Shown: positions 28,738-64,000 of the stretch, in pieces
Position numbering within the stretch: the stretch's first letter is position 1
Layout: every line of letters begins with the position of its first letter
IMG/VR virus record: IMGVR_UViG_3300029112_000175
Coordinates: 1,552-65,551 of that record
Direction: 5' to 3' (one strand)
DNA length: 64,000 bases
Source: a virus
Notes under the pieces: generated by a model
Told to the model about the DNA's origin: nothing
Seen by the model: the letters and a program-made list of their open reading frames with translations, nothing else
Database searches by the model: none
Position numbers and translations under genes: made by a program

Positions 28738-29673
28738 CTAATTACTATATACGCTATATTCACCGTACATTTGTTTTTCAGTTTCTTCTTCTATCCTACA
28801 AGCTTCTTCAAATGACTCAAAGCGACCAATATATTTTTTCTTAATAACAACATACCATTTATCTCCCTTTTTCTGAACATTCTTATGACCAGATGTATTA
28901 TGAGAAGGAGTCATTTTATTTAATGCATTTTCCTGTAATTTACAAATTCGAAGTTCAGATTTTCTATTATCATCAACTACATGATGGATATGATCTACTT
29001 CGTACCCATCTGGACAATTCATCACTACTCTATGAAGCCAAACAGTTTTTCTAGTATATGGATCATAGGCTACTACATACCCGTTAGTGTCTTTTCTCCA
29101 ACAATATTCTTTTACTTTGTCATAATCCTCAGTATCAAAAATGAATTTTGAATTATCATAACAAATACCTATCATATACCCATTCCCTATTTGATACTTG
29201 TTATACTTTTTTCGTTGTTTTGACAGACGTTCTGCTGATAATCTATCATGAAGACATCCGCATGATTTAGTTGTCCCATTTTTCAACGCACTATATTGGA
29301 TGTTTTTTGCAATTTTCCCGCATTTGCAAAGACAGTTACAGTAAATTAATGATTTATTCGTCTTTCTACAAGCATCTATAATTGTTAAGTCTCCATATTC
29401 CTCGCCAATCAAGTCATCTAAATCATATTTTGTCATCAAGCCTCTAACAATTTCTTTTTGAAGACATCCACATGACCTTGTAGATCCATCTTTTAAGGCT
29501 GAATATCTTATATGAGATTTGTGACCGCCACATACGCAGTCACAATCACACATAATATGTTTTCCTTCGCGATATGTTTTTACAATTTTTAATCGATCAT
29601 AAACCTCTCCGATTAATTTTGTTTCATCTATTCTTGCTCCCATTATCTTATTTCTCCATGTTTTGGATAACAT
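28738..29673 (-). CDS. HNH endonuclease with duplicated N-terminal Cys-rich repeats
   Basis: GYEVDHIHHVVDDN...N matches the HNH motif. Two repeats CxCxCxCG...YSALK.G.T.SCGCL. Inserted between primase and helicase genes. Confidence 0.65.
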   Translation of the reverse strand: MLSKTWRNKIMGARIDETKLIGEVYDRLKIVKTYREGKHIMCDCDCVCGGHKSHIRYSALKDGSTRSCGCLQKEIVRGLMTKYDLDDLIGEEYGDLTIIDACRKTNKSLIYCNCLCKCGKIAKNIQYSALKNGTTKSCGCLHDRLSAERLSKQRKKYNKYQIGNGYMIGICYDNSKFIFDTEDYDKVKEYCWRKDTNGYVVAYDPYTRKTVWLHRVVMNCPDGYEVDHIHHVVDDNRKSELRICKLQENALNKMTPSHNTSGHKNVQKKGDKWYVVIKKKYIGRFESFEEACRIEEETEKQMYGEYSVYSN

Positions 29674-36229: not shown

Positions 36230-37108
36230 TTACTCTTCACCAACAAAAACTAATCTATCAATATATTCTCTACCTTCGCCCTTGAAAATAGGGATATCTA
36301 TATCAATAATCCACTCATTTTCAGACTTAGAAGTATCTCTTAACTGCGCAGTTGTCATGACACTATCAGTTTCAATAACAATCTTATTTCTTACACAACA
36401 GCTTCCTCTCTTCTGATAAGTCGGTAAATCGTTCCAGTTAATACCTTTCTGAGTAATAAGCATATCCTGAATATCATTGCATGATTTATTCTGTAATTCT
36501 TTATGTGAGAAATTAGCTTGACCTACCATCTGAATTGAGTTATGAGAAGCGTCTAATTGCCTCCAATATACGAGATTTGTTACTTCTTCTTTTGGAATAT
36601 TGAAACAACGAGCATCGAACATTGCACCTTTGTCAACTGCTTTTGTGTAAATTTGACACATTTCATATTCTGGTGTACCTTTCCCATACCACCCATTGAT
36701 TTCATGTTCTGTTGCATAACACTGTTCAAAATCCTCTACATTCTTGGAAAAAGCTTTATTAAAAGCCATCGTAGCCATACTTGCCGCAATACTACAAATC
36801 TTCTGTACTTCATAATCAAACCATGCTGAAGATGTGAGCTTCTTATAATCAACAAGAATCAATGTAATCTCATCTGACTGCGTGTAACCAAGAACACAGC
36901 CCTGAATATTCTCGCATAAGTATTTCATTGTTTCCTGCATTGACTTAATTAACACTTCATCAAACGGCTTATGGAATCCTCTTGTGAATGTATGGAACGC
37001 CTTTCCATCAATTCTGATAGCAACTGGACACCTTCTCATTAATTTTGTCTTAGGAATCTGCTCATAAAATGTCTTCATGCGACAGCCTAAATCATCATGT
37101 ACTGGCAT
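36230..37108 (-). CDS. Thg1-like protein (tRNA-His guanylyltransferase family, 3'-5' nucleotidyltransferase)
   Basis: N-terminal block FYEQ...RCPVAIRIDGKAFHTFTRGFHKPFDEVLIKSMQETMKYL...GYTQSDEITLIL aligns closely with eukaryotic Thg1 (YVVVRLDGRNFHRFA..KPND..AYGQSDEYSF). SD AGAGAGGT precedes the ATG. Confidence 0.75.
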   Translation of the reverse strand: MPVHDDLGCRMKTFYEQIPKTKLMRRCPVAIRIDGKAFHTFTRGFHKPFDEVLIKSMQETMKYLCENIQGCVLGYTQSDEITLILVDYKKLTSSAWFDYEVQKICSIAASMATMAFNKAFSKNVEDFEQCYATEHEINGWYGKGTPEYEMCQIYTKAVDKGAMFDARCFNIPKEEVTNLVYWRQLDASHNSIQMVGQANFSHKELQNKSCNDIQDMLITQKGINWNDLPTYQKRGSCCVRNKIVIETDSVMTTAQLRDTSKSENEWIIDIDIPIFKGEGREYIDRLVFVGEE

Positions 37109-37590: not shown

Positions 37591-38097
37591 TTACTGCGAG
37601 TTTTTACTTTCTAAGTAATCTTCTCTTAATATCTCATACGATTTCTTATCATAATATTCTCCGTCATAGCACTTAAATTCCTTACGCCAGGTTCCAATAA
37701 TTCTTCCATTGTATTTTTTAATCATTTTGTCATACGACTTTTCAATTGGATTTCCAATTACAACACAAAACGTAAGTTTGCGAAATTTAAACTTGTCGAA
37801 GATATCCTGTAATGCACGACCAAGATCCATCCCGAATGTCGTCTTGTTATCTGAAAAATTGTAAATGCACAATCCATTACAACTATTATCTTGACGAGAC
37901 ACATTATATCTTATATAGCCAATTACATTTCCGTCTTTATCAACAGATACAAACTGATGTTTATTCCATGTATTACCTTCAATTTTTTCTTCTTCACAAT
38001 ATGTATTTGCATGTACAAATTTATACTTATCTGTAAACCATGTATCTACAAGCTTTTTCTGCAACTCTTCTTTATGTTTAATTGCTAAATCTAACAC
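37591..38097 (-). CDS. hypothetical protein (possible GNAT-like fold)
   Basis: Weak resemblance only. Confidence 0.3.
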   Translation of the reverse strand: MLDLAIKHKEELQKKLVDTWFTDKYKFVHANTYCEEEKIEGNTWNKHQFVSVDKDGNVIGYIRYNVSRQDNSCNGLCIYNFSDNKTTFGMDLGRALQDIFDKFKFRKLTFCVVIGNPIEKSYDKMIKKYNGRIIGTWRKEFKCYDGEYYDKKSYEILREDYLESKNSQ

Positions 38098-38143
38098 CTT
38101 TTCATCTCCTCGTATGAAACCGATATTTCTTGTTTAATTTGTT

Positions 38144-38182
38144 ACTGTATATAGTAGTTTTATCTGACTACTATATACAGTA
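38144..38182 (-). promoter_or_regulatory. perfect 16-bp inverted repeat TACTGTATATAGTAGT-N7-ACTACTATATACAGTA
   Basis: Sits in the 128-bp gap between 38226..38633 and 37591..38097. T-run on the plus side. Confidence 0.45.
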
Positions 38183-38225: not shown

Positions 38226-38633
38226 TTACTTCAATAAAGCAGCAATCTCATCAATTTCCAGCTCTGTTTTCTTATCATCAGAAAGCAACTTGTCCAACTT
38301 GCTCTCCATTTTCTTCAAATCAGACTCTTCTTTCTTCAGACCAGATACCTCCAACTTACTCTTAATATCTTTAATCCATGCTGTCACACTATATCCTGAA
38401 ATTTCAAAATCAGCCATATTAAGATCCTTTGCAGACATTAAATATGAATTCAATCTAATCAAAAGTAATAATAATGCATCATCTGAACACACATTTAGAT
38501 TAATTGTTATTCCATCCATATTAAGAACGCAATTTGTTTCAGGAATAAATCTGATCTTCTTCTCAGAAATTGATTTCTTCTTGACTTCAATCTGTTTCTT
38601 TAATTCTAAAATTCTGTCATCGTTTTTACTCAT
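38226..38633 (-). CDS. hypothetical protein
   Basis: ORF in array. Confidence 0.4.
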   Translation of the reverse strand: MSKNDDRILELKKQIEVKKKSISEKKIRFIPETNCVLNMDGITINLNVCSDDALLLLLIRLNSYLMSAKDLNMADFEISGYSVTAWIKDIKSKLEVSGLKKEESDLKKMESKLDKLLSDDKKTELEIDEIAALLK

Positions 38634-42017: not shown

Positions 42018-42788
42018 TTACAATACCTGTACGATCTGCTCATACAGGATCATATCCTTATCATTGATTGCTCTATTGACATGCATATGTCCCATGAACC
42101 AATACTTATATTCGGTTTCTGCTCTAATATTCTCCAAATACTTCGTAAGAATATCCTGTTCATACAAACCTTGTCCTAACAATGCAATAACTGATGCAGG
42201 CGGACTATGAGTGATAATATAATCTACTACATTATTATTCTCTTTTAATTTGTCCAATCCATATTGCATTTCCTGATCAGTTGGAAGTTCTTCTTCCCAC
42301 CAAGTCAGATCTTTTACACGGTACATCCATTTACCGTTTACTTCCAATTCCTTGGCTTGTTCTCGCCAATCCTCATCGTTATAATCAAGAATACCATCTG
42401 AAATATCGTGCGAACTTGCACCACCGAATGTAAAGAATTTTTTACCCTGAATATTGAAAACCTCACCACGCATCATATGTAGAACATGTGGTCTAATTTC
42501 ATGAATCATACCACCATGCCATTCTTTTACAGGATATGTAGCCATTCTTTTATGGTTCTCATGGTTCCCATCTACAAATAGTGTTGTGAATGGTTTATCT
42601 TCTAACCAGTCTAACCAATAATGCTCTGATTTTCTTTCACAATCACGCTGCCATACAAGACCAAAATCACCACAGATGATTACAAAATTTTCATCCTTGT
42701 TTCCGCTAAAATCTTTTTGTTCATAGAAACAATCTTTACTGAACCTGCTTACATCCGCATGGCAATCGCCTGTTACAAATACACTCAA
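42018..42788 (-). CDS. calcineurin-like metallophosphoesterase
   Basis: VFVTGDCHAD, IICGDFG, FVDGNHENH and a GGASSHD..THSPP motif series. Confidence 0.65.
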   Translation of the reverse strand: MSVFVTGDCHADVSRFSKDCFYEQKDFSGNKDENFVIICGDFGLVWQRDCERKSEHYWLDWLEDKPFTTLFVDGNHENHKRMATYPVKEWHGGMIHEIRPHVLHMMRGEVFNIQGKKFFTFGGASSHDISDGILDYNDEDWREQAKELEVNGKWMYRVKDLTWWEEELPTDQEMQYGLDKLKENNNVVDYIITHSPPASVIALLGQGLYEQDILTKYLENIRAETEYKYWFMGHMHVNRAINDKDMILYEQIVQVL

Positions 42789-42817
42789 TATTTATCACTC
42801 CTTTTTATTTTTATTAC

Positions 42818-42886
42818 TTCCTCATCTTGGACTCGAACCAAGTTTTGCAGAGTGAGCTGCCGTGCTTCCTATTACACCAATGAGAA
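42818..42886 (-). tRNA. tRNA-like gene; anticodon loop noncanonical (6-nt loop CUCACU), identity undetermined
   Basis: Minus-strand sequence TTCTCAT-TG-GTGT-AATAGGAA-GCAC-G-GCAG-CTCACT-CTGC-AAAA-CTTGG-TTCGAGT-CCAAG-ATGAGGA-A. Acceptor stem is perfect at 7 bp. T-arm is CTTGG/CCAAG with loop TTCGAGT. D-arm has a GG loop. No encoded CCA. Confidence 0.5.
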
Positions 42887-43034
42887 ACCATAAACGTTTT
42901 ATTAAGTGGCTCTGTTGCTTAAGTCTGCGCATCAACCAAGCAATAACAATCCGATGGGAAATTTGTTTTTAAAGTTTTACATCCTCTTGCCACCGTTCTG
43001 CGACTTTCCACATCACAGATGAATCAGAGCCAAC

Positions 43035-43106
43035 GGCGAATACCGGATTTGAACCGATACTTCTGAGATCAAACCTCAGTGTACTACCTGATTATACTAA
43101 TTCGCT
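43035..43106 (-). tRNA. tRNA-Gln (anticodon UUG)
   Basis: Anticodon stem CTGAG/CTCAG with loop GTTTGAT, giving U33, UUG and A37. T-arm ATCGG/CCGGT with loop TTCAAAT. D-arm GTAT/GTAC with GG loop. Acceptor GCGAAT/ATTCGC. No encoded CCA. Confidence 0.7.
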
Positions 43107-45144: not shown

Positions 45145-45421
45145 TCTTTATATTCCTCCAATTCATACAATCCATTGATCTTATTATCCAACTCAGCCAC
45201 TTCTTGTCTTAATTTATTTGCTTTTTTCTTACTATCTGTTTTAATATATTCAGTCCATTTTTTCTTACGTAAGTTTGTCACTTCCTTGTACAACTCATCG
45301 CAGTCTTTTTCATCTACAACTGCCAGCTCAATCTTCTCTCCACAATTGCCAGCTTCTGAGCGATAGTGGATTTACCACTACCACTCAGCCCAACAAGTAA
45401 CATCAATTTAGGTTTATTCAT
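45141..45421 (-). pseudogene. P-loop nucleotide/polynucleotide-kinase-like gene remnant, frameshifted
   Basis: ATG at 45419-45421 gives MNKPKLMLLVGLSGSGKSTIAQKLAIVERRLSWQL, then TAG. The -1 frame continues ...EKIELAVVDEKDCDELYKEVTNLRKKKWTEYIK...EYKE and ends in a TGA overlapping the next ATG. No intact ORF of 60 aa or more. Confidence 0.45.
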
Positions 45422-46733
45422 TAACCGTCTCCTTATATAATTCTTCTGCTTCTTCCATATCAGGTGCATCAGATGTGTCCTTAATTAAACCCTCACATAC
45501 TTTAAATTCAAACACTTTGTCCTTAAAAGCAGTAAATGTAGGTCTATTATCAATACGAATAACTACACCCTCTGCAATATGTGTTTTGCCAATCTCATCT
45601 GCTGGCATTCCATCAATATATTTATGTACTCTTTCCTGGAGATCTTCTGGTGTTGTAAAAATAAACTTTTCTAAGTCAGGTACATGCTTAACTCCAAGCT
45701 TATCGCACCATACTTTAACAGTTTCCCAAGGAACTTCAAACACAGTTCCATCTGCTGTTGTTGCGGTCATTCGATATACATACATTTCATTTTCGCCAGG
45801 TTTACAACCATAAGAGAATGTTGTAGTATCTCCGAATTTCTTAGTGAATTCTTTTTCTTTTACACCTCTATTAGAAACAGACCCCATAATTGGAGTAGAT
45901 TCATTTACCCATCCTACAATCTCATAAAAAACCGATAATCCTTCTGGAAGTCTGTCTTTTAATAAATCATGATATTTTTTTCTAAAACTATTATCAGAAT
46001 AATATCCATCATTCTTAGTCATATCCTTTAGCACAACTCTTCTGCTACCAGATACCACAGAAACTTCTTTAAAGATTTTCGGCGGCATATGTAATAATTT
46101 TCTCAGCCGATTAGTTTTCTTTGTAACCTTGACTGTTTTCATTGTCCTGGCTGAAGTACCGTGGAGTTTGCGAGTAATATAAATAGTATCTCCTGGTTTA
46201 AAAGCAGACATATTGTATGCAAGCTGTGCAGTATCTTTATGCTCTTCAAAGAATGGATAAGATACAGTTTCTTTAGAATTTTTATGACTCTTTTTGGAAC
46301 TTCCAGTATTATTTCTTACTCGATTTTTACCTTTGGGAATATATTTACGACAAATCTCATGACCATCCAGAACAGTGATCTGATCACCATCTTTTAATTT
46401 AGAAATGTTAGTGTATTTAGAAAGTGTTTCAATTGGTAATACAAGACCTTCAGATTTTTCTCCTCGAAGTCTGATGGCTGTTACATTTCTTTTATCAGGG
46501 TCCATATAGCCACCAGTATTATTACCATTTTCATCTTTTACTCTTATCAAATTGTTCTCTGTTGCATATTCTAATGAAAGCTGTCCATCAGAAGGAAAGA
46601 AAATAACTTTCTGACCTTCTTTATAACTTAAATCTACAATTACATTCTGCCCAAATACTTCTACACACTGCAGCCTATCTGCATTACTGTGTTTTCTCAA
46701 ACCTTTTAACGTTGTTACATAAGCACAATACAT
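45414..46733 (-). CDS. ATP-dependent RNA ligase (Rnl2-like nucleotidyltransferase) with N-terminal Myf/EMAP-type tRNA-binding OB domain
   Basis: N-terminal YVTTLKGLRKHSNADRLQCVEVFGQNVIVD...IRLRGEKSEGLVLPIETL matches the tRNA_bind (HPNADKL...LRGVxSEGM) pattern. Ligase motifs: I ITRKLHGTSAR, III FYEIVGW, IV IAEGVVIRID, V FKDKVFEFK. Confidence 0.6.
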   Translation of the reverse strand: MYCAYVTTLKGLRKHSNADRLQCVEVFGQNVIVDLSYKEGQKVIFFPSDGQLSLEYATENNLIRVKDENGNNTGGYMDPDKRNVTAIRLRGEKSEGLVLPIETLSKYTNISKLKDGDQITVLDGHEICRKYIPKGKNRVRNNTGSSKKSHKNSKETVSYPFFEEHKDTAQLAYNMSAFKPGDTIYITRKLHGTSARTMKTVKVTKKTNRLRKLLHMPPKIFKEVSVVSGSRRVVLKDMTKNDGYYSDNSFRKKYHDLLKDRLPEGLSVFYEIVGWVNESTPIMGSVSNRGVKEKEFTKKFGDTTTFSYGCKPGENEMYVYRMTATTADGTVFEVPWETVKVWCDKLGVKHVPDLEKFIFTTPEDLQERVHKYIDGMPADEIGKTHIAEGVVIRIDNRPTFTAFKDKVFEFKVCEGLIKDTSDAPDMEEAEELYKETVNE

Positions 46734-46803: not shown

Positions 46804-47505
46804 TTAATTTTCTAATTTGTTACCTTTAGCTTCATTACAAGGCTTACACATTGTTTGATAGTTACTAATATCATCAATACCACCTTTTGAGCGTGGTAAA
46901 ATATGATCTTTTGTCATTAAAATTTCTGTACCATTATCATCAACTGCATATAAATTCAGATGATATGCTTTATCTTGTAAATGTCTTTCTTTTGCAAAAT
47001 ATTTTCCTTCAATTCCACAAATTGCGCATTTACAACCTTTTGTGAAAAAAGTCTGATATCTTTGACTGTTACCCTTAATCAAATCTCCATCGAAATCAAT
47101 CTTTACATTTCTCTTATCTTTTTCAAATAGAATGTCTTTTACTTTTTCTCTAACTTCATCAATGGAATATACTTCTTTGCGAATCAAGTCCTCGTGTTTT
47201 TGTTTTTGCTTTAGTTTTGATTTGCAAAATTGCTTAGTTAATAAAGTATTACAAATATCTTCATTACTCAAAATAATTAACAAATCTTTTACTGTTTTAA
47301 TCTGGTTAGGAATATAATCAGAAAGTAAATGTCTATTCCAAACAATCTTAAAAATTTCTGTATCCAAATTTGGTGATAATGGATTATTGTTCTTGGGAAA
47401 ACTCGTATTTAAGAAATCTTCAATAGTTTTATATTTGTCTAATAACTCCTTATCATTAAAACGATAATGAAATTTAAGACCTTTAAAAAAATTCTTTTTG
47501 CTCAT
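46804..47505 (-). CDS. HNH endonuclease
   Basis: C-terminal DHILPRSKGGIDDISNYQTMCKPCNEAKGN. Confidence 0.65.
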   Translation of the reverse strand: MSKKNFFKGLKFHYRFNDKELLDKYKTIEDFLNTSFPKNNNPLSPNLDTEIFKIVWNRHLLSDYIPNQIKTVKDLLIILSNEDICNTLLTKQFCKSKLKQKQKHEDLIRKEVYSIDEVREKVKDILFEKDKRNVKIDFDGDLIKGNSQRYQTFFTKGCKCAICGIEGKYFAKERHLQDKAYHLNLYAVDDNGTEILMTKDHILPRSKGGIDDISNYQTMCKPCNEAKGNKLEN

Positions 47506-48567: not shown

Positions 48568-50178
48568 CTATTCGATACACTTAAAAGATACATCTGTTCT
48601 ACGATTCATAGCCTTATGTTCATCTGTATCATTATCTACTATAGGTTTACTAGATCCATTACCTACAGTAATAATTCTATCAGCAGAAATTCCATTTAAT
48701 ACAAAATACTGTTTTACAGTTTCTGCTCTCTGCTGAGATAACATCTTATTGGCAGTATCTTCAGGATCAGAATATGGATTAGGGTCAGTATTACCAGCAA
48801 TCTCAATAATTGTTCCATCCAGAACTTTCGCAATACTGATAAAGTCATCTAATTTCTGAGTAGCTTCAGCGGAGTCAGTAAACTTTGCGGTATTAATAAT
48901 AAAGTTTACCGTTGCAGATTTCTGTAATAATGCAGTAGTATCAAGTACCTCCTGTTTATTCTCTTCTGTGACAGTTACATTTACATCAGTCTTTGTAATA
49001 TCCTGTGCATCGTACTTAGTTTCCAGTTTAGAAACATAAGTATTATCAAAAATAGTATTTAATAAATCCCTATTTACAGTTTCACCAATAGATTCCCAAA
49101 CTCCACACATATCAGAAAAAATTGTCTTTGCAGTTCCATTAAGTAAACTCATGTTATCAGCATATGTGCATAATTTTGCAGATTCACAATTTCCTAAAAT
49201 ATCCTCATCAGAGGCAGTAGAAAACATCGGCATGACAGACTTAATAGTAGTTAAATCAGTAGTGTATAAATCAGCCGCCTGAAAAGCGCCATCAATAAAT
49301 GCAGTTACAGTATCTGGATATTTCTTTGCAAAATCATCATTAAATAAAATTCCATCCATAATTAAACTGGAAGAACTTGCAGTGCTAAATAGGATATGTG
49401 CATCAGACATATTCTGTGCCTGAGTTAAATATGGTTCCCATGTTGCAGCTACATCAATCTGGCCTGCAAAGAAAGCTTTTGCTGCTTCATCTGGTGTTTC
49501 AAAATATACAAGATTATTAATAATAGAATCTTTTTCTTCCTGGGTTAAATCAGACTGGTTTACAAACCAAACCACTAAAGAATGAGCCTCTGAGAACTGT
49601 GGAACGCCAATTTTTGCATTTACTAAATCAGATACAGAATTAATAGAAGATTTTGTGATAATGCCATCTCCACCATTAGAGAAATTGCTGATGTATGGCA
49701 TAATTACATTTAGGCCTGCGTCCTGAAACTTTTTAGATAAGAAAGCGGTTCTGTTAATGGTATAGCCTGCTGCATCTAATTTCCCACTAATTAAAGCGTT
49801 GCTAGACTGGGTTGCATCATTGATGATGCTAATATTTACTTTTATTCCAAGTTTGTCATAGATGGAACCTGGTTGTGTGGTAAGCCCGTTGTTGGCGTCA
49901 ATAATTGGTTTCCAACCGATCCACTCATCAAGAGACACATTGATTGTTTTATCATCTACCTTATCAGTGTTAATTACGTTACCATCATCATCCGCTGCTA
50001 CAGGAGCTGCCATCTCTGGCTGTTTAGAGGTGTTTTCTGTCTTTGTAGTTTCTTTTTTACTGTGTTTAATAAATCCTGTTTTTAATCCTAAAACTACACC
50101 GCCACCAATTAATGCCATGATAAGAATCATGATCAATACTTTTGCTGCTTTAGTCAGCCGAAATCTTCTTGTACTCAT
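48568..50178 (-). CDS. Membrane-anchored NMT1/SsuA-like substrate-binding domain fused to C-terminal OmpA/MotB peptidoglycan-binding domain
   Basis: N-terminal TM helix (VLIMILIMALIGGGVVLGL). Central periplasmic-binding-protein-like region. C-terminal OmpA signature NTDPN...AMNRRTDVSF. Confidence 0.5.
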   Translation of the reverse strand: MSTRRFRLTKAAKVLIMILIMALIGGGVVLGLKTGFIKHSKKETTKTENTSKQPEMAAPVAADDDGNVINTDKVDDKTINVSLDEWIGWKPIIDANNGLTTQPGSIYDKLGIKVNISIINDATQSSNALISGKLDAAGYTINRTAFLSKKFQDAGLNVIMPYISNFSNGGDGIITKSSINSVSDLVNAKIGVPQFSEAHSLVVWFVNQSDLTQEEKDSIINNLVYFETPDEAAKAFFAGQIDVAATWEPYLTQAQNMSDAHILFSTASSSSLIMDGILFNDDFAKKYPDTVTAFIDGAFQAADLYTTDLTTIKSVMPMFSTASDEDILGNCESAKLCTYADNMSLLNGTAKTIFSDMCGVWESIGETVNRDLLNTIFDNTYVSKLETKYDAQDITKTDVNVTVTEENKQEVLDTTALLQKSATVNFIINTAKFTDSAEATQKLDDFISIAKVLDGTIIEIAGNTDPNPYSDPEDTANKMLSQQRAETVKQYFVLNGISADRIITVGNGSSKPIVDNDTDEHKAMNRRTDVSFKCIE

Positions 50179-50190
50179 ATATGTTCTCTC

Positions 50191-50928
50191 CTACTTATTA
50201 TATTTTTTCTTTAAAGAATCCAGATAATCATTACTACTATTTTTTCTCGCTTCAACTTCTGCTTTTGCTAATTTGGTAGACATTTTATTTTCATGAACTA
50301 CCCTAGAACCTTCTACAATAGCATTAAGATCTTTATTTTTTTCTCTTACAGAATCAAGCATTTTATCAGTAGCAGTGACATTTTTCAATTCGTCCATGTC
50401 ATCATAGACTTCCTGCAACTGTTTCTTTACTTTCATATTCTCTACAACTTCTTTACTCTCACGCTTCAATTTTCTGAGATTCTGTTCGCAGCGTTCTTGA
50501 GTTTCTTTCGCAGCAGCTGTTGCTTTTTCATACGCAGCCACAAGCTCCGTACAACGATTAATATCGGCAATAACTTCTTCTCTTTCTTCTGCTTTCAACT
50601 GTGCCAGATCCATCTTGCCCGCTTTTACTAAAGACTCACAATCAGTTTCCGTCTTCTTTAACTTATTTTTAAGAACTTCCATGTCCTTTTTAGCATTGCT
50701 TAGTTTACCAGCAGCAAGCTTATAAGCATTATCAGCTTTGTTGTAGGAATCTTGTGCCTGACTAATTTTCTCACCATAGATAGCTTCTGCTCCTTCTGGT
50801 GTAGTAGCCATATCTTTAATGAATAGTCTTGTCCATCCCATTAAAAGTGTTCTTGCTTCTGGGAACATAATTAGAATTACAACAAAAAGAAAAATAACCA
50901 CGCCAACAACAATAGTTTTCAGATCCAT
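50191..50928 (-). CDS. PspA/IM30-like coiled-coil membrane-stress protein
   Basis: N-terminal TM helix, then a PspA-like helical pattern (...EGAEAIYGEKISQAQDSYNKADNAYKLAAGKLSNAKKDMEVLKNKL...). Confidence 0.4.
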   Translation of the reverse strand: MDLKTIVVGVVIFLFVVILIMFPEARTLLMGWTRLFIKDMATTPEGAEAIYGEKISQAQDSYNKADNAYKLAAGKLSNAKKDMEVLKNKLKKTETDCESLVKAGKMDLAQLKAEEREEVIADINRCTELVAAYEKATAAAKETQERCEQNLRKLKRESKEVVENMKVKKQLQEVYDDMDELKNVTATDKMLDSVREKNKDLNAIVEGSRVVHENKMSTKLAKAEVEARKNSSNDYLDSLKKKYNK

Positions 50929-51464
50929 TAGACCTCACCTCCTACAAATGAAATCAACTTATTAATTCTATTTGCTTCAACAACAATAGTTTCAGTAGAA
51001 GCTTTTAACTCGGCCTGTTCCTGTGCAATATTTTTTTCTAATTCTGCAATTGTTTCTTTAGCTGCTTCAATTCTTTCCTGATAATCAGCAATCAAACTGT
51101 CTTTTTCAGAAGTAATTTTATTTAAAGCAGCGTTTAAAACTTCTACTCTTTTATTGCCATCTGCGACAACTTCTTCTGATGTAAGACCAAATACTCCAAG
51201 GGCAGATAACACACTGTTCTTTTTTGTTTCAGTAACCATTTCTTTTGGCAGAGCATTCATCAAATCTTCAATCTTAAAGATGGATTTAGACTGATCGTAT
51301 AATTCATTCTGTGCGTAAATATCAGATACAAGCGTTTCTGTATTTACCACATCAAGATTGATATTCGCGTCTTCTTCATAAATTGAGTCGCTTGTTTCTA
51401 ATCTCTGTTCCATTAGAGTGTCATCAACTTCTTCAACTAATCCAAGTTTTTTTAATAATCCCAT
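50928..51464 (-). CDS. coiled-coil hypothetical protein
   Basis: ORF abutting neighbours. Confidence 0.4.
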   Translation of the reverse strand: MGLLKKLGLVEEVDDTLMEQRLETSDSIYEEDANINLDVVNTETLVSDIYAQNELYDQSKSIFKIEDLMNALPKEMVTETKKNSVLSALGVFGLTSEEVVADGNKRVEVLNAALNKITSEKDSLIADYQERIEAAKETIAELEKNIAQEQAELKASTETIVVEANRINKLISFVGGEV

Positions 51465-51479
51465 ATTGTCTCTCCTCTT

Positions 51480-52091
51480 TTATAAATTTATAATCACATC
51501 ACACATTTTCTTTGCTTCTTCATTACTGTGTGTAACTATGATCACTGTATTATTCTCTACTTTATGTTGTTTTAACACGAGATTCTGCATTGTAGTTCTA
51601 GTTTGCGGATCAAGTGCAGATAACGGTTCATCCATTAATATAATTGCCGGTTTTGTAAATAATGTTCTGGCTAAAGCTAATCGTTGTCGCTGCCCTCCAG
51701 ATAATTGTTTCGGAAACTTTTTTTCGTAATTTTCAAGACCGACCTGTTTTAAAAAATCTTTTGCCAATTTAACATCTTCTTTTGTAACAGATCTTTTTAT
51801 TTTAACTGGCAATAAAATATTCTCTAAACAGTTCATCCAATCAAATGAAGTATAATTTTGGTGCATCATGAAAATATTGTTCTTTGAAGCTTTGGTTATT
51901 TTTTCTCCATCTACAATTATTTCACCATTTAATGGCTTCATTAATCCGGCAATTGTTCTAAGCAACGTTGTTTTTCCACAGCCAGATTCTCCTAAAATTC
52001 CATAAATTTTTTTATCGAATTTCATTGAATAATTTTTTAGTAATGGCTTATCTCTACTATAGCCAGTGGTTAGATCTTTTAATTTAATCAT
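51480..52091 (-). CDS. ABC transporter ATP-binding protein (NitT/TauT-type)
   Basis: Walker A GESGCGKTT. Signature LSGGQRQRLALAR. Walker B IILMDEPLSALD. Confidence 0.75.
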   Translation of the reverse strand: MIKLKDLTTGYSRDKPLLKNYSMKFDKKIYGILGESGCGKTTLLRTIAGLMKPLNGEIIVDGEKITKASKNNIFMMHQNYTSFDWMNCLENILLPVKIKRSVTKEDVKLAKDFLKQVGLENYEKKFPKQLSGGQRQRLALARTLFTKPAIILMDEPLSALDPQTRTTMQNLVLKQHKVENNTVIIVTHSNEEAKKMCDVIINL

Positions 52092-52830
52092 CTAAATACC
52101 TCCATTTAAATGCCCATTTAATTATTCTCTTACTAGCCCAATCAAATATGACGCTGATAATCATAATTACCATAATTGCCATAAAAACCATATCCGTTCT
52201 TCCTCTTGAGGAGCTTTGCTGAATAATCCATCCCAATCCGTAATGTGCATTAATTGTTTCTGCCACGGCAATGTATGTAAAACCGATACCGTACATCATT
52301 ACGAAGCTATTTAATATACTTGGCAGTGAAGCAGGAAGCTGAATTTTATATACAGTTTGTAGTTTATTCATTCCTATAGTCAAACCCGTATCAATCAAAT
52401 CCTGATTCACTTCTTCCAAACAGAGAATTACAGATGGCATCATATATACGAATGTTGCGATAAATAAGAACACAATCTTCATAAGTTCATCAATCCCAAA
52501 CCACATAATAAGTAAAGGATAAAATGCTGTAACTGGGATATATCTTAATGCACTGATAATTGGATTTAAAAAATCTTTTATTAATGGAATATTGAAAATT
52601 AATAGAGCTATTGGTAAAGAAATTATTGATGAAAGAATTGCTGCTATAGTCACTCTAAAAAAAGAATATTTAATCGCAATAAATATTTCTCCATTACATA
52701 TCAATACATATAAATTCCTAAATACGCTTTTAGGACTTGGTACAAAAATAGGATTATAATATCGTGCAGTAGTTGACCAGATCAAAAAAATACACAGAAT
52801 CAATAAAAATCTTTTTAATATATTTTTCAT
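52084..52830 (-). CDS. ABC transporter permease (TauC/SsuC-like)
   Basis: Six predicted TM segments. EAA-like loop IAVAETINAHYGLGW. Confidence 0.55.
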   Translation of the reverse strand: MKNILKRFLLILCIFLIWSTTARYYNPIFVPSPKSVFRNLYVLICNGEIFIAIKYSFFRVTIAAILSSIISLPIALLIFNIPLIKDFLNPIISALRYIPVTAFYPLLIMWFGIDELMKIVFLFIATFVYMMPSVILCLEEVNQDLIDTGLTIGMNKLQTVYKIQLPASLPSILNSFVMMYGIGFTYIAVAETINAHYGLGWIIQQSSSRGRTDMVFMAIMVIMIISVIFDWASKRIIKWAFKWRYLDD

Positions 52831-53610: not shown

Positions 53611-54825
53611 TCACCTCAATTCAATCAGATACTTAATAGTACATTGCTCTTCTTTGTAAACAATAATCTCATCATTACGCAGCATATCTCCCGCATGAGC
53701 GTGTAAACAATTCGCACCAGGACAAACGGATTGAAGTTTACTGTAATCAAAGCTGTAATATTTACTATCGAAGGAATACACATCATATGGTTTACCATAA
53801 GCTACATCCATTAATGCCATAAAACCAAAATTGGAATCACCTCTAACCCAATAGCTTCCACTCAAACTGGTATAACCAAGAGATTTTCTAGCTTTTGGTG
53901 CATAATAAATACCATACCCAAACATCTTACCCGTGATGACAGCATTAGTTGGTTTTAAGACAAGACCACTATTGATGATGAACCACCAATTTTCATTCCT
54001 GCTACCATGGAACAATAACTTTGTCTCCGTAATATTATTCTCTTTTACAAAATCATCAAAACGTTTCTGCGTCTTAAGGTTTTTGACTTTCCATGCCTTA
54101 TGGAATTTATCAGAGCATGATCCAAGTGCATCTTTAATAATAGCGATATCCTTTTTATCACATTCTTCGAATACCAGTCCCAACTGCTCAAGAATTGTAT
54201 TCTTGATTTTTACATCATTTTCCGCTTTTGTTTCTTCAATGACCTGTTTCTGTACGACCTGTCCTTTCATAACATCGAGCAGATCCTGTTCTTTTTGAAT
54301 AATCTCAGAGAAATTATTGCTAGACTTAGCAAGATAATCTGAAACGTATCCCATTTTTCTAGGAATAACAGTAAAGAGTTTTAACAGAATATTATTAAAT
54401 TCTTCAACTTCTTTAATATCAAGTAAACTTGTCAAAACATCTTGTGCTTCATCCACCATTGCCTGAGTTACTTTGTTAGAAGAAATCGTATAATTGTCGC
54501 TGATAGCTTTTCGTGCCATTGCTTGTAATCGTTCTACAATCTCAGCAATAACTTTATTTTCAATTTCTTTATATTCTGAGTTTTTAGGTTTTTCAACCTG
54601 AATTAAGTCTTCTACAAGTTCACTCTGATCAACATAGCCTTTGCGAAGTTTTTCTTTATATTTTGATTCCCACTGACTCATAGAATACTCTCTATGTTGT
54701 GGACTGCTTCCTACCCTTCCGTATTCAGCAGTCCAACTATCTCCATGAGGAATCTGTTTATAATATTTATTATTATTCGCAGAAGCAGTGACCATCACTA
54801 AATATCTTGGTTTGATCTCTGCCAT
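53611..54825 (-). CDS. PARP-like ADP-ribosyltransferase (WGR domain + helical domain + H-Y-E catalytic domain)
   Basis: N-terminal WGR-like HGDSWTAEYGRVGSS. C-terminal LLFHGSRNENWWFIINSGL...TGKMFGYGIYYAPKARKS...DEIIVYKEE aligns with PARP1 LLWHGSR...TGYMFGKGIYFAD...NEYIVY. His, Tyr and the catalytic Glu are all present. Confidence 0.75.
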   Translation of the reverse strand: MAEIKPRYLVMVTASANNNKYYKQIPHGDSWTAEYGRVGSSPQHREYSMSQWESKYKEKLRKGYVDQSELVEDLIQVEKPKNSEYKEIENKVIAEIVERLQAMARKAISDNYTISSNKVTQAMVDEAQDVLTSLLDIKEVEEFNNILLKLFTVIPRKMGYVSDYLAKSSNNFSEIIQKEQDLLDVMKGQVVQKQVIEETKAENDVKIKNTILEQLGLVFEECDKKDIAIIKDALGSCSDKFHKAWKVKNLKTQKRFDDFVKENNITETKLLFHGSRNENWWFIINSGLVLKPTNAVITGKMFGYGIYYAPKARKSLGYTSLSGSYWVRGDSNFGFMALMDVAYGKPYDVYSFDSKYYSFDYSKLQSVCPGANCLHAHAGDMLRNDEIIVYKEEQCTIKYLIELR

Positions 54826-54834
54826 ATATTCTCC

Positions 54835-55272
54835 TTATAATGTACAAACTAAAATCTCAATATCAGTATCAAAAAATACATCCTCTAACATTTCATATAC
54901 TCGATCCCATTCAAGCTGATCGAGGCCACACCCAATACGTGGCATTGCGATTTTAGTGATGTCATATTCTTCACAATAATCACGCATATCCACTAAAGTA
55001 TCATATAATGTTTCATATATAGGTTTGTGATAGCAACGAGGCTTTGTAACCAGATTAAATACGTTGTCAATGAGTAATGCTTTTCCTACATTATCGTATT
55101 TTTCTCCTTCTGGAATTGGATACTGACTATGTAATTTATATCTCATGTTATATACATCTACAAACTGCTTTGCAATACCAGCACCTAACGCATAATCACC
55201 ACTGATACAATGGGCCAAATAATAACCCTGTGGTACTGTAAATAAATCTCTCTGTTCTTCTTTAATATTCAT
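54835..55272 (-). CDS. macro-domain-like protein (ADP-ribose binding/hydrolase)
   Basis: LAHCISGDYALGAGIAKQF and IAMPRIGCGLDQLEW resemble macro-domain Gly-rich loops. Immediately upstream of, and co-directional with, the PARP gene. Confidence 0.5.
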   Translation of the reverse strand: MNIKEEQRDLFTVPQGYYLAHCISGDYALGAGIAKQFVDVYNMRYKLHSQYPIPEGEKYDNVGKALLIDNVFNLVTKPRCYHKPIYETLYDTLVDMRDYCEEYDITKIAMPRIGCGLDQLEWDRVYEMLEDVFFDTDIEILVCTL

Positions 55273-58436: not shown

Positions 58437-59399
58437 TCAGGATTCTCTGGTAAAGAAGTATTTTTTCTTATCATAAGCTAATCTTTTATCCAACTCATCC
58501 ACCAACTCATAAAATTCAGGAATCGGCTGATCGTTACCGTCCAGATATTTACCATTGCGAATATCCATCAATAAGTCATGTTCTTTTCCTCTGTATGTAA
58601 CAATTTTTTCATTCTCTAAAATGTCAAAACACATATAATAAAGACGAACTAAATGCATCATGTGTTTTCCTAGTTTTCCATGTTCGATAGCATTCTGATT
58701 ACGCTTCCCAATCTTCGCATAATCTTTTACTACACAGTTCATTTCAGACCACATTGCTTTATAATCTCTCAATGGATAATGTTTAAAATTCATATCCATG
58801 AAAATTTCTGTATTATAATCTTCTTTATCTGACTTATCAATATAGAGCTTAAGTGAATCTTCTGGATAATAAGCATATTTGCTAGGAAATGTATATACGG
58901 CATTCATAATACTATTGAGAATATGTTGTTCTCTTTCTTCTTGCCCTACTACTCTTGCCGCCTTATTACTTAAACGCCGAAGCTGCTGGTTCGCATAACC
59001 ACCAAAAGAATACACAGCTTTCCTGGATAAAAATAAATGGGCATTATCTAATAATTCCTGACCAATCGGTGTTACGTATAAATAATGCTCAGGCTTTAAT
59101 CCTAACAACTCAATAGTATTAGGATTTACATTCAGTAATAACGAAACTAACTTATTGAACGAATATATTGTTGTATCAGTCTGTTCATTTACGAACTGTT
59201 CAAAATTCTGATTAGTCAAAATATCCATCTTGCTATTTAAGGCACAGCCGCGGCAATCCAAGTCCGAATTCTCTACATTAGTGCCATAGGCATAACTACC
59301 ACCCAAACCAAGAAGAATAATATTCTTTCCAAGATGCTCATTGGTTCTTAGAAAATCATATTCTCCACTACTGACTTTTTTCTTAATCTCATCAATCAT
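58437..59399 (-). CDS. Pol-beta-superfamily nucleotidyltransferase
   Basis: LLGLGGSYAYGTNVENSDLDCRG matches the GS-x(9-13)-DxD minimal NTase motif. A helical C-terminal domain follows. Confidence 0.5.
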   Translation of the reverse strand: MIDEIKKKVSSGEYDFLRTNEHLGKNIILLGLGGSYAYGTNVENSDLDCRGCALNSKMDILTNQNFEQFVNEQTDTTIYSFNKLVSLLLNVNPNTIELLGLKPEHYLYVTPIGQELLDNAHLFLSRKAVYSFGGYANQQLRRLSNKAARVVGQEEREQHILNSIMNAVYTFPSKYAYYPEDSLKLYIDKSDKEDYNTEIFMDMNFKHYPLRDYKAMWSEMNCVVKDYAKIGKRNQNAIEHGKLGKHMMHLVRLYYMCFDILENEKIVTYRGKEHDLLMDIRNGKYLDGNDQPIPEFYELVDELDKRLAYDKKKYFFTRES

Positions 59400-63016: not shown

Positions 63017-64000
63017 TTACCTCAATCTAATATCTTCTCTTGTTTCTCCATCAGAATAATATATATTCCAACCTTTAAATAGGCTAATCAATTCTTCGTC
63101 GTCCCAGTCACATTCATTGCAATGCATAAGTGCTAATGATTTCTTATTTCCAAAATCTCCTACATCCTTACTGCATCTGTTATACAATTCTTTTAAATCT
63201 AATGTTCCATATCTCAATGTATCCTGGAATGGATTTGGTATATTAGTTTTATCAAAAATATATTTGTTGATCTGATTTTTATCACACTCTGATGGAAATT
63301 TTCCTGTACCATGCCGTGTAAGATATGTACGAGACACATAACAAGTTTCAATGTTTATCTCTTCATTCCATTCACCATTTTCAATTATTCTCTTGGGATT
63401 TTTAATACCTGTATTAGATGGTGTTAGATGTGGAAAATATTCTGTGTTATTCTGATCAAGCAATAAACCTTGTGCAGCTTCAAATACAATATTATCAAAC
63501 TGATTTAAGAAATAATTATCTGATATAGCCAATGAGTGATTATTCATAAAATCCCAATCATCTAAAAAGTGTTCAAATATACCATTATCAAGGAATATTC
63601 TTGACCATTCATCTGTTAATATAATATTCTCTCTTTCAAATTGTTCTAAGTAATATTCCCTGATATGATCATCTACATCAGTTATACCAGCTTTATATCT
63701 TTTGATAGTTTCAAAAATTCCCAAGCCACAACTACCATGTTTATTTTTTCCACGATTTTCCTCTATAATCTGATTTGCCATCATATCAAAAGGTGTAGTC
63801 AACATACAATCTTGATTGATATAAACATTTGGGATATATCCTAATTTCATCAACTCATCATATTCCTGCTTAAAAATAATTGGATTAACAATAAAATCCT
63901 CAGATAAATATGTACTTGCATGAGTGAATGTTCCAGATCCAAAATGATGAAAGACATGTCTGATTCCATCAGGCGTTGTTACGGTATGTCCTCTCTGAGC
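63017..64000 (-). CDS. Adenylosuccinate-synthetase (PurA)-family protein, divergent (partial; N-terminus beyond window end)
   Basis: The ORF stays open in frame to the window edge; the ORF track begins at a TTG. The upstream translation AQRGHTVTTPDGIRHVFHHFGSG matches PurA GGHNAGHTLV..LHLIPSG. ENRGKNKHGSCGLGIFETIKR matches GTTGRGIGPAYEDK. FEAAQGLLLDQNNTEYFPHLTPSNT matches [24 protein letters not shown]. Confidence 0.6.
   Translation of the reverse strand, partial: AQRGHTVTTPDGIRHVFHHFGSGTFTHASTYLSEDFIVNPIIFKQEYDELMKLGYIPNVYINQDCMLTTPFDMMANQIIEENRGKNKHGSCGLGIFETIKRYKAGITDVDDHIREYYLEQFERENIILTDEWSRIFLDNGIFEHFLDDWDFMNNHSLAISDNYFLNQFDNIVFEAAQGLLLDQNNTEYFPHLTPSNTGIKNPKRIIENGEWNEEINIETCYVSRTYLTRHGTGKFPSECDKNQINKYIFDKTNIPNPFQDTLRYGTLDLKELYNRCSKDVGDFGNKKSLALMHCNECDWDDEELISLFKGWNIYYSDGETREDIRLR

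Follow-up and report, generated by a model that had tools for sequence, protein, structure and literature searches.

A Thg1-like protein with two exchangeable surface segments encoded in a metagenomic phage sequence

The subject of this study is a 64,000-nucleotide (64-kb) stretch of the IMG/VR virus record IMGVR_UViG_3300029112_000175 (positions 1,552 to 65,551 of that record), referred to here in its entirety as the window. Positions 36230 to 37108 of its minus strand are occupied by an open reading frame (ORF) which, judged by profile and homology matches, almost certainly encodes a Thg1-like protein (TLP), a 3'-5' nucleotidyltransferase. The predicted enzyme is a bacterial-type TLP with a complete set of active-site residues, and it is a further member of a recognized and annotated phage gene family for which a role has already been proposed in print. 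The new observation concerns two segments of its surface, which are replaced wholesale between alleles that are otherwise nearly identical. The protein is probably an active TLP that repairs the 5' ends of transfer RNAs (tRNAs) during infection.

Identity and active site

The ORF is uninterrupted, comprises 292 codons plus a stop and fills its coordinates exactly; a GAGAGG ribosome-binding site lies about 7 nucleotides upstream of its ATG start. The sequence-only reading had assigned the product to the Thg1-like proteins on the strength of three motif blocks in the N-terminal part. All three are present, VAIRIDGKAFHTFT at residues V29-T42, KPFDE at K47-E51 and GYTQSDEITLIL at G74-L85, and the assignment is borne out by Pfam, PHROG and PDB matches far beyond chance. 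In the profile search which that reading had proposed, Pfam Thg1 (PF04446) yields 106.4 bits (E=1.4e-30), where the curated cut-off is 29.2, and the match covers residues 10-172 of the protein and positions 3-130 of the 130 in the profile. The companion model Thg1C (PF14413) reaches 24.1 bits, slightly below its cut-off of 26.3; despite this sub-threshold score, residues 162-289 align with residues 126-239 of the Bacillus thuringiensis Thg1-like protein (BtTLP) at E=9e-26. PHROG 4717, labelled 'tRNA-His guanylyltransferase', matches over the full length (E=1.3e-88, 297.9 bits), and the top solved structure is that of BtTLP (PDB 4kgk, E=8.8e-61), to which residues 5-123 and 162-289 are aligned. 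A search of NCBIfam returned zero models matching the TLP.

Residues were mapped through HMMER alignments to BtTLP and human THG1, with residue roles taken from the literature (PMC3701042). The metal-binding carboxylates, whose conservation the earlier reading had singled out for checking, are all in place: D34, D79 and E80 correspond to D30, D75 and E76 of BtTLP and to D29, D76 and E77 of human THG1. The site for the incoming nucleoside triphosphate comprises R32, R167, R183 and E16 (BtTLP R28, R131, R147 and E12) and the activation site H39, K47 and S78 (BtTLP H35, K43 and S74). Every functionally assigned residue of the BtTLP reference set is thereby accounted for. Neither outcome that the earlier reading had named as refuting the assignment, lack of a Thg1 profile hit or loss of the metal-binding residues, was observed.

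Relatives were sought in IMG/VR with peptide patterns from this one protein (tblastn, E<=1e-3). TLP relatives are encoded by 297 stretches, on contigs mostly of about 90-200 kb, and the locus comparisons below concern the best 80 of these 297 (L001-L080), all chosen for carrying a TLP. The carboxylate triad is kept in 77-79 of 79 close relatives, and the catalytic residues are invariant or nearly so both in these and in 124 distant representatives. Asparagine replaces D34 or D79 in 3 of the 79 IMG/VR alleles, and also in proteins P0025, P0028 and P0118; such alleles may be sequencing errors or naturally inactive variants.

The protein shares with the eukaryotic Thg1 enzymes (human THG1, PDB 3OTB, and those of yeast and Candida) the palm domain and the carboxylates equivalent to D29, D76 and E77, and differs from them in other respects. 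Similarity is weak, with E=1.3e-8 for human THG1 and 4e-12 for other eukaryotic chains (overall 1e-8 to 1e-12), as against 8.8e-61 for BtTLP; the archaeal M. acetivorans TLP (MaTLP) scores 5e-12. The sequence 'DASHNSI' followed by a gap stands opposite 'DCHINNLYNTVFW' of human THG1, the HINNLYN region, which is thus lacking. The eukaryotic asparagine used for adenylylation (N161 of the yeast enzyme, ScThg1) is replaced by methionine, M194, as in BtTLP (M158). Because BtTLP is the best match, the HINNLYN region is missing and methionine occupies the N161 position, the enzyme is of the TLP type and not a tRNA-His-specific Thg1 that adds G-1 without a template.

BtTLP (PDB 4KGK/4KGM; PMC3701042) is accordingly the closest structural reference. 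The two proteins align nearly end to end, with an identical triad, identical activation and transfer residues and methionine at positions 158 and 194, respectively. The window TLP differs in an insertion of about 38 amino acids between BtTLP residues 119 and 126, in a longer beta-hairpin region and in its origin from a phage of a different host group; its activity is predicted by homology.

Two segments exchanged as cassettes

The core of the protein is under strong purifying selection: across 78 relatives the ratio of nonsynonymous to synonymous substitution rates (dN/dS) is about 0.07 at a dS of about 0.4. Two surface segments depart from this regime (Table 1). In the first, cassette 1, which corresponds to the insertion relative to BtTLP, the consensus frequency is 0.35-0.47, compared with more than 0.9 in the core; its length varies, and both dN and dS are near saturation. 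It is predicted to be helical in a low-confidence AlphaFold2 model. Among 79 sequences 25 types of cassette 1 can be distinguished, with no correlation between the type and the identity of the core (r=0.18). Thus 82 pairs have cores at least 97% identical and cassettes less than 40% identical, and 47 pairs have cores less than 90% identical and cassettes at least 85% identical.

The same pattern is visible at the nucleotide level. Outside codons 121-160, identity to the window is about 83-99%, and mostly 90-99%, in loci L005, L009, L012 and L030; it drops to 6-56% in three 30-nucleotide intervals over codons 121-150 and is 33-73% over codons 151-160. A complementary arrangement is found in L002 and L008, which keep the cassette 1 of the window (86-99%) but fall to 36-46% at codons about 241-260, with a partial recovery (66%) up to codon 270. 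This second segment, cassette 2, coincides with a predicted beta-hairpin. Residues 242-256 align with the hairpin of MaTLP (R198-R215), although the alignment is weak, the model poor and the segment hypervariable.

MaTLP has been solved in complex with tRNA (PDB 5AXK-5AXN; PMC4820378), and its flexible beta-hairpin, which its authors describe as poorly conserved, binds the tRNA elbow and measures the length of the acceptor stem (PMC4820378). It belongs to the same fold family, and its elbow-binding hairpin aligns with window residues about 239-268. Similarity to MaTLP is only distant, its R215 cannot be placed with confidence, and in the window protein the hairpin is a swapped module.

Two simple accounts of cassette 1 were rejected. 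The site spans 8-83 residues across 124 family representatives, which rules out an insertion unique to the window protein. A diversity-generating retroelement is an unlikely source of the variants, as these are unequal in length, unrelated in sequence and devoid of an adenine-templated pattern.

Exchange of the gene between phage lineages

Besides its internal exchanges, the gene as a whole moves between phages. Nucleotide similarity between the window and its relatives is confined almost exactly to the TLP ORF plus about 30 nucleotides upstream. TLP proteins are 84-86% identical in phages whose DnaB helicase is only 20-29% identical to that of the window, and TLP identity may be as low as 74-76% where DnaB is 80% identical. 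As the two identities are decoupled, the TLP gene is exchanged between lineages as a single-gene module. Since the loci were selected for the presence of a TLP, its ubiquity among them is by construction.

Over its N-terminal 118 residues, BtTLP shares 75-80% identity with TLPs of myophages of the B. cereus group (Hobo, BM15, Bcp1 and others), and the 'bacterial' reference therefore belongs to a phage-associated clade. On this sequence evidence BtTLP may itself be of phage origin.

Occurrence in phages and probable host

The suggestion that a viral copy is unusual does not survive comparison with the databases or the literature. By tblastn, TLP homologs are present in at least 162 GenBank phage records, many of them labelled tRNA-His guanylyltransferase; the carriers include Bacillus, Caulobacter, Mycobacterium and Erwinia phages, Prevotella Lak megaphages and Fusobacterium phage Fnu1. 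To these are added the PHROG 4717 family and the 297 IMG/VR relatives. Thg1 was noted in Pseudomonas phage 201phi2-1 by Anantharaman et al. in a comparative-genomics paper of 2010 (PMC2904730), who proposed a tRNA-repair role from the bacterial linkage of such genes to those for polynucleotide kinase, Macro and RNA ligase proteins (PMC2904730). The genome paper of Bacillus phage Bc431v3 flagged a Thg1 gene in 2013 (PMC3601020), and Iyer et al., again from comparative genomics, listed Thg1 among the RNA-repair enzymes of jumbo phages in 2021 (PMC7824862). Phages go unmentioned in the specialist Thg1 review of 2019 (PMC6471195).

The phage TLPs of PHROG 4717 (Fnu1 gp147, Bc431v3 gp143 and those of BM15/Hobo, 201phi2-1 and the Lak megaphages) show full-length similarity of 31-55% to the window protein. 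They, too, are encoded by free-standing genes among early, replication and accessory genes of large phages, and they have been read as tRNA modification or repair enzymes (PMC3601020, PMC7824862). The window TLP differs in belonging to an uncultivated gut clade with hypervariable cassettes. Its identity to every GenBank phage record is below 60%. In metagenomes it is abundant: a cluster 99% identical to it has 358 member sequences, and an NR entry with 86% identity is named 'MAG TPA: tRNAHis guanylyltransferase [Bacteriophage sp.]'. An exhaustive HMMER scan resolved the family into 5,533 clusters at 50% identity.

The carrier is probably a large uncultivated phage of gut Lachnospiraceae. Megablast of the 34-40 kb region against GenBank phages gave no match, which indicates a phage without a close sequenced isolate, and between the DnaB helicase of the window and its counterparts in Clostridioides and other Firmicutes phages identity amounts to only 24-29%. 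Relatives of the TLP with 59-68% identity lie on contigs of Roseburia, Robinsoniella, Blautia, Eubacterium plexicaudatum and other Lachnospiraceae assemblies, and these close relatives point to Lachnospiraceae as the host group.

The same contigs, which derive from isolate assemblies, might be taken to mean that a bacterial gene has been misread as a phage gene, and the few metagenomic relatives with D34N or D79N that the copy is degenerate and non-catalytic, a pseudoenzyme or a decoy. Either is very improbable. The window is a phage region of replication and nucleotide metabolism and the relatives lie on IMG/VR viral contigs; all catalytic residues are present in the window copy, and the low dN/dS of the core applies. 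None of the defence-system models of PADLOC matched the TLP; the neighbouring genes gave two weak, uninformative hits only.

RNA-repair genes in the window

The window has a G+C content of 33% and nearly all of its genes lie on the minus strand. Its products include, with PHROG matches, a DNA polymerase, the DnaB helicase, a Toprim-domain primase-like protein, NrdD/NrdG and an NAD-dependent DNA ligase; a DHH phosphoesterase, an AAA_24 ATPase and a methyltransferase are also encoded. The window is the arm of a large phage that serves replication and nucleotide metabolism, and genes with an RNA-repair theme are abundant in it (Table 1).

Table 1. Features of the TLP gene and RNA-repair-themed genes of the window
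Feature	Position	Strand	Evidence or remarks
Complete TLP ORF	36230..37108	(-)	Pfam, PHROG and PDB matches
N-terminal catalytic palm domain, residues 10-172	36593..37081	(-)	Pfam Thg1; E16, R32, D34, H39, K47, S78, D79, E80, R167
C-terminal Thg1C/'fingers' region, residues 162-289	36242..36625	(-)	Alignment to BtTLP 126-239; R183, TLP-type M194
Cassette 1, residues 121-160	36629..36748	(-)	Insertion of about 38 amino acids vs BtTLP; connection of palm helix alpha2 and strand beta4
Cassette 2, residues about 241-265	36323..36388 (residues about 241-262)	(-)	Predicted beta-hairpin
Calcineurin-like metallophosphoesterase	42018..42788	(-)	DxH, GNHE and GH motifs intact
Dubious tRNA-like sequence	42817..42887	(-)	ARAGORN call only; 6-nucleotide anticodon loop ('2-base anticodon'); good acceptor stem and T arm
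tRNA-Gln(UUG)	43034..43106	(-)	Rfam tRNA 54.2 bits; A1.C72 mismatch atop acceptor stem, G73, no encoded CCA
P-loop (AAA_33-type) kinase remnant, 35-codon ORF	45314..45421	(-)	Walker A at start; overlaps ligase stop
RNA ligase	45414..46733	(-)	N-terminal OB-fold domain and nucleotidyltransferase domain, motif I K-L-H-G; PF09414 42.6 bits; PHROG 968 E=1.4e-71
PARP catalytic domain and WGR domain protein	53611..54825	(-)	
Macro-domain protein	54835..55272	(-)	Immediately downstream of PARP-WGR protein
RlaP-family nucleotidyltransferase ('RNA repair pathway DNA polymerase beta family')	58437..59399	(-)	PF10127 49.6 bits, cut-off 23

Genes for an RNA ligase and a putative 3'-phosphoesterase are both present, the latter with intact motifs. 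From its motifs the metallophosphoesterase is a possible 3'-end healing enzyme; the ligase has no sequence match among solved structures. The kinase is a remnant which retains only the first 25 recognizable residues of a protein of about 294-330 amino acids. Intact AAA_33-type kinases of 294-330 amino acids, with an HD-like C-terminal motif, are encoded in L030 (537-1421), L031 (2994-3896) and L008 (217-1209). About 3 kb beyond the PARP-WGR/Macro pair lies the RlaP gene, so that further genes with NAD/ADP-ribose and RNA-repair themes reside in the same arm.

This inventory recalls the healing-and-sealing pathway of T4, composed of a polynucleotide kinase-phosphatase and an RNA ligase. Ligase and phosphoesterase are present in the window, relatives of the window keep an intact AAA_33-type kinase beside the ligase, and tRNA damage is a theme common to both. 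The T4-type pathway, however, mends breaks in the anticodon loop, whereas a TLP rebuilds missing 5' nucleotides; moreover, the kinase is deleted in the window and the repair genes are unlinked to the TLP in relatives.

The sequence-only reading had placed the TLP gene 6 kb from the RNA ligase, the kinase remnant and a tRNA cluster. All of these exist, and the distance holds for the tRNA calls (5.7-5.9 kb); the kinase remnant and the ligase are 8.2-8.3 kb away. As for the cluster, the tRNA-Gln at 43034-43106 is bona fide and the second call, at 42817-42887, is dubious, since it was made by ARAGORN only and is not recognized by Rfam even at E<=1. A similar element occurs near the tRNAs of L008 (5164-5234), and in L093 (3554-3630) there is a tRNA call with a 4-base anticodon (ttaa). 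For the element in the window, a pseudo-tRNA, a decoy and a non-standard decoder are all conceivable.

Linkage, probable function and alternatives

Our preferred reading is repair of tRNA 5' ends, for which substrate, timing and biological purpose are drawn by analogy from homologs. In vitro, TLP-type enzymes rebuild 5'-truncated tRNAs by Watson-Crick templated 3'-5' addition (PMC3701042, PMC4820378). BtTLP does so with activation by ATP or GTP, TLPs act on many tRNAs (PMC3701042), and MaTLP contacts the acceptor stem and the elbow independently of the anticodon (PMC4820378). The phage enzyme would likewise use ATP or GTP to activate RNA ends that bear a 5'-monophosphate. With the 3' strand of the acceptor stem as template, it would next extend such ends in the 3'-5' direction. 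Truncated tRNAs would in this way be rebuilt regardless of their anticodon, and host tRNAs, phage tRNAs or both would be kept functional during infection. The repair could extend to G-1 of tRNA-His, opposite C73.

Linkage was assessed by tblastn with 15 window proteins and the kinase-remnant peptide, the distance limit being 10 kb from the TLP gene. The metallophosphoesterase lies within this limit in 6 of 80 related loci, and where tRNA genes accompany the TLP, tRNA-Gln(UUG) is the commonest (9 of the 10 tRNA-bearing IMG/VR loci). A number of results weigh against tRNA repair as the function. The RNA ligase is near the TLP in 1 of the 80 loci and the kinase in 3; a tRNA of any kind is found there in 10 of the 60 IMG/VR loci scanned and in 7 of 23 loci from genomes and isolate phages. 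Recurrent neighbours of the TLP are replication genes, a PurA/PurZ-like adenylosuccinate synthetase and PAPS-reductase-like and LemA genes, and in the isolates Fnu1 and Hobo the TLP is surrounded by small hypothetical genes. With the kinase of the window reduced to 25 codons, a 5'-OH end could not be phosphorylated by a nearby phage enzyme. Furthermore, we know of no host nuclease that truncates 5' ends in this system. Finally, the AlphaFold2 monomer, built on a 36-sequence alignment whose members are all at least 82% identical, has a mean predicted local distance difference test score (pLDDT) of 48 and a predicted template modelling score (pTM) of 0.34; at this quality it supports neither a fold search nor the positioning of the insertion, so the structural assignment is one of sequence homology.

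When all ORFs of 81 loci were clustered, the top neighbour family reached no more than 34 loci; together with the linkage counts, this rules out a conserved partner gene or operon. The TLP gene is a free-standing accessory gene and not part of a fixed repair operon. The broader repair toolkit envisaged from the sequence is therefore tenable in one sense only: ligase, metallophosphoesterase, kinase remnant, RlaP and Macro genes do co-occur in the window, but their linkage is not conserved in the 80 loci and the kinase has been deleted.

One alternative reverses the emphasis and makes tRNA-His the dedicated substrate, G-1 being added or restored opposite C73 on the host or phage molecule to enable charging by histidyl-tRNA synthetase. 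The names in family databases ('tRNA-His guanylyltransferase') agree with it, BtTLP can add G-1 and complements a yeast thg1 deletion (PMC6471195), and MaTLP possesses a second, anticodon-dependent mode of binding tRNA-His (PMC4820378), although TLPs at large work on many tRNAs (PMC3701042). Neither the 64-kb window nor the 10 kb on either side of the TLP in 83 related loci contains a tRNA-His gene, and the anticodon-recognition region of the eukaryotic HINNLYN type is absent. In bacteria G-1 is normally already encoded in the tRNA-His gene, and adding it would be redundant except where it had been lost. A dedicated role in tRNA-His maturation is on balance unlikely.

Another alternative moves the substrate away from tRNA altogether: the enzyme would extend or activate the 5' ends of small or broken RNAs of phage or host, yielding App- or Gpp-RNA that feeds a ligase or is altered in stability. 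Anantharaman et al. proposed that Thg1 could aid ligation through 5'-App ends and noted links to RNA ligases (PMC2904730), the possibility that some TLPs have non-tRNA substrates is considered in the 2019 review (PMC6471195), and two hypervariable surface modules could retarget substrate choice. Yet all TLPs characterized so far act on tRNA-like acceptor stems, the predicted elbow-reading beta-hairpin is retained in position, though variable, and no conserved partner gene exists. We regard this possibility, too, as an outside one, and repair of tRNA 5' ends remains the reading adopted here.

Other features of the window

A scan for promoters and terminators around the TLP gene found no more sites than in shuffled sequence. 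An inverted repeat of 40 nucleotides (38143-38182; 17-pair stem, 6-nucleotide loop) lies in the gap between the ORFs at 37591-38097 and 38226-38633, and a simple scan scored it as terminator-like on the plus strand.

Two HNH endonuclease genes, both on the minus strand, are situated between the primase-like and helicase genes (28738-29673) and at a site that, in terms of transcription, shortly precedes the RNA ligase gene (46804-47505); such insertions are consistent with a strongly mosaic region. The minus-strand interval 48568-52830 encodes parts of an ABC transporter, namely an ATPase (51480-52091), a permease (52084-52830) and a substrate-binding protein that carries a fused OmpA-like domain (48568-50178), and nearby a PspA/IM30-like protein was detected as a weak hit (50191-50928).

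An adenylosuccinate-synthetase-like gene at 63017-63853 on the minus strand matches PHROG 1211 ('2-aminooxy adenylosuccinate synthetase'), which we take to be the PurZ family. In 21 related loci (for example L016, 6896-7987) a homologous family of 363 amino acids recurs at a distance of about 3 kb on the upstream side of the TLP. The PurA/PurZ-like gene may hint at 2-aminoadenine DNA.

Significance

Reviews term bacterial-type TLPs enzymes 'of unknown function' outside protist mitochondria. The spread of TLPs in large phages argues for damage to tRNA 5' ends during infection, an idea that has already been published. To this the present analysis adds three elements. BtTLP, the best-studied bacterial enzyme of this type, falls in a phage-associated clade. 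In gut phages of the Lachnospiraceae type the TLP gene moves singly between lineages whose replication genes are 20-30% identical. Moreover, on a core under strong constraint, cassettes are exchanged at two surface segments, one of which corresponds to the predicted reader of the tRNA elbow.

A more far-reaching interpretation, which is offered tentatively and is rather doubtful at present, is that the TLP is a horizontally traded counter-defence enzyme whose two modules, for specificity or evasion, are swapped by recombination under diversifying selection. If this were true, swapping might direct the enzyme towards other damaged tRNAs or might free it from host inhibitors or immune sensors that recognize it, and 3'-5' RNA polymerization would enter the arms race between phage and host over tRNA. 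The exchange of cassettes on a constrained core provides a concrete hypothesis for how the substrate or partner specificity of these enzymes may be set.

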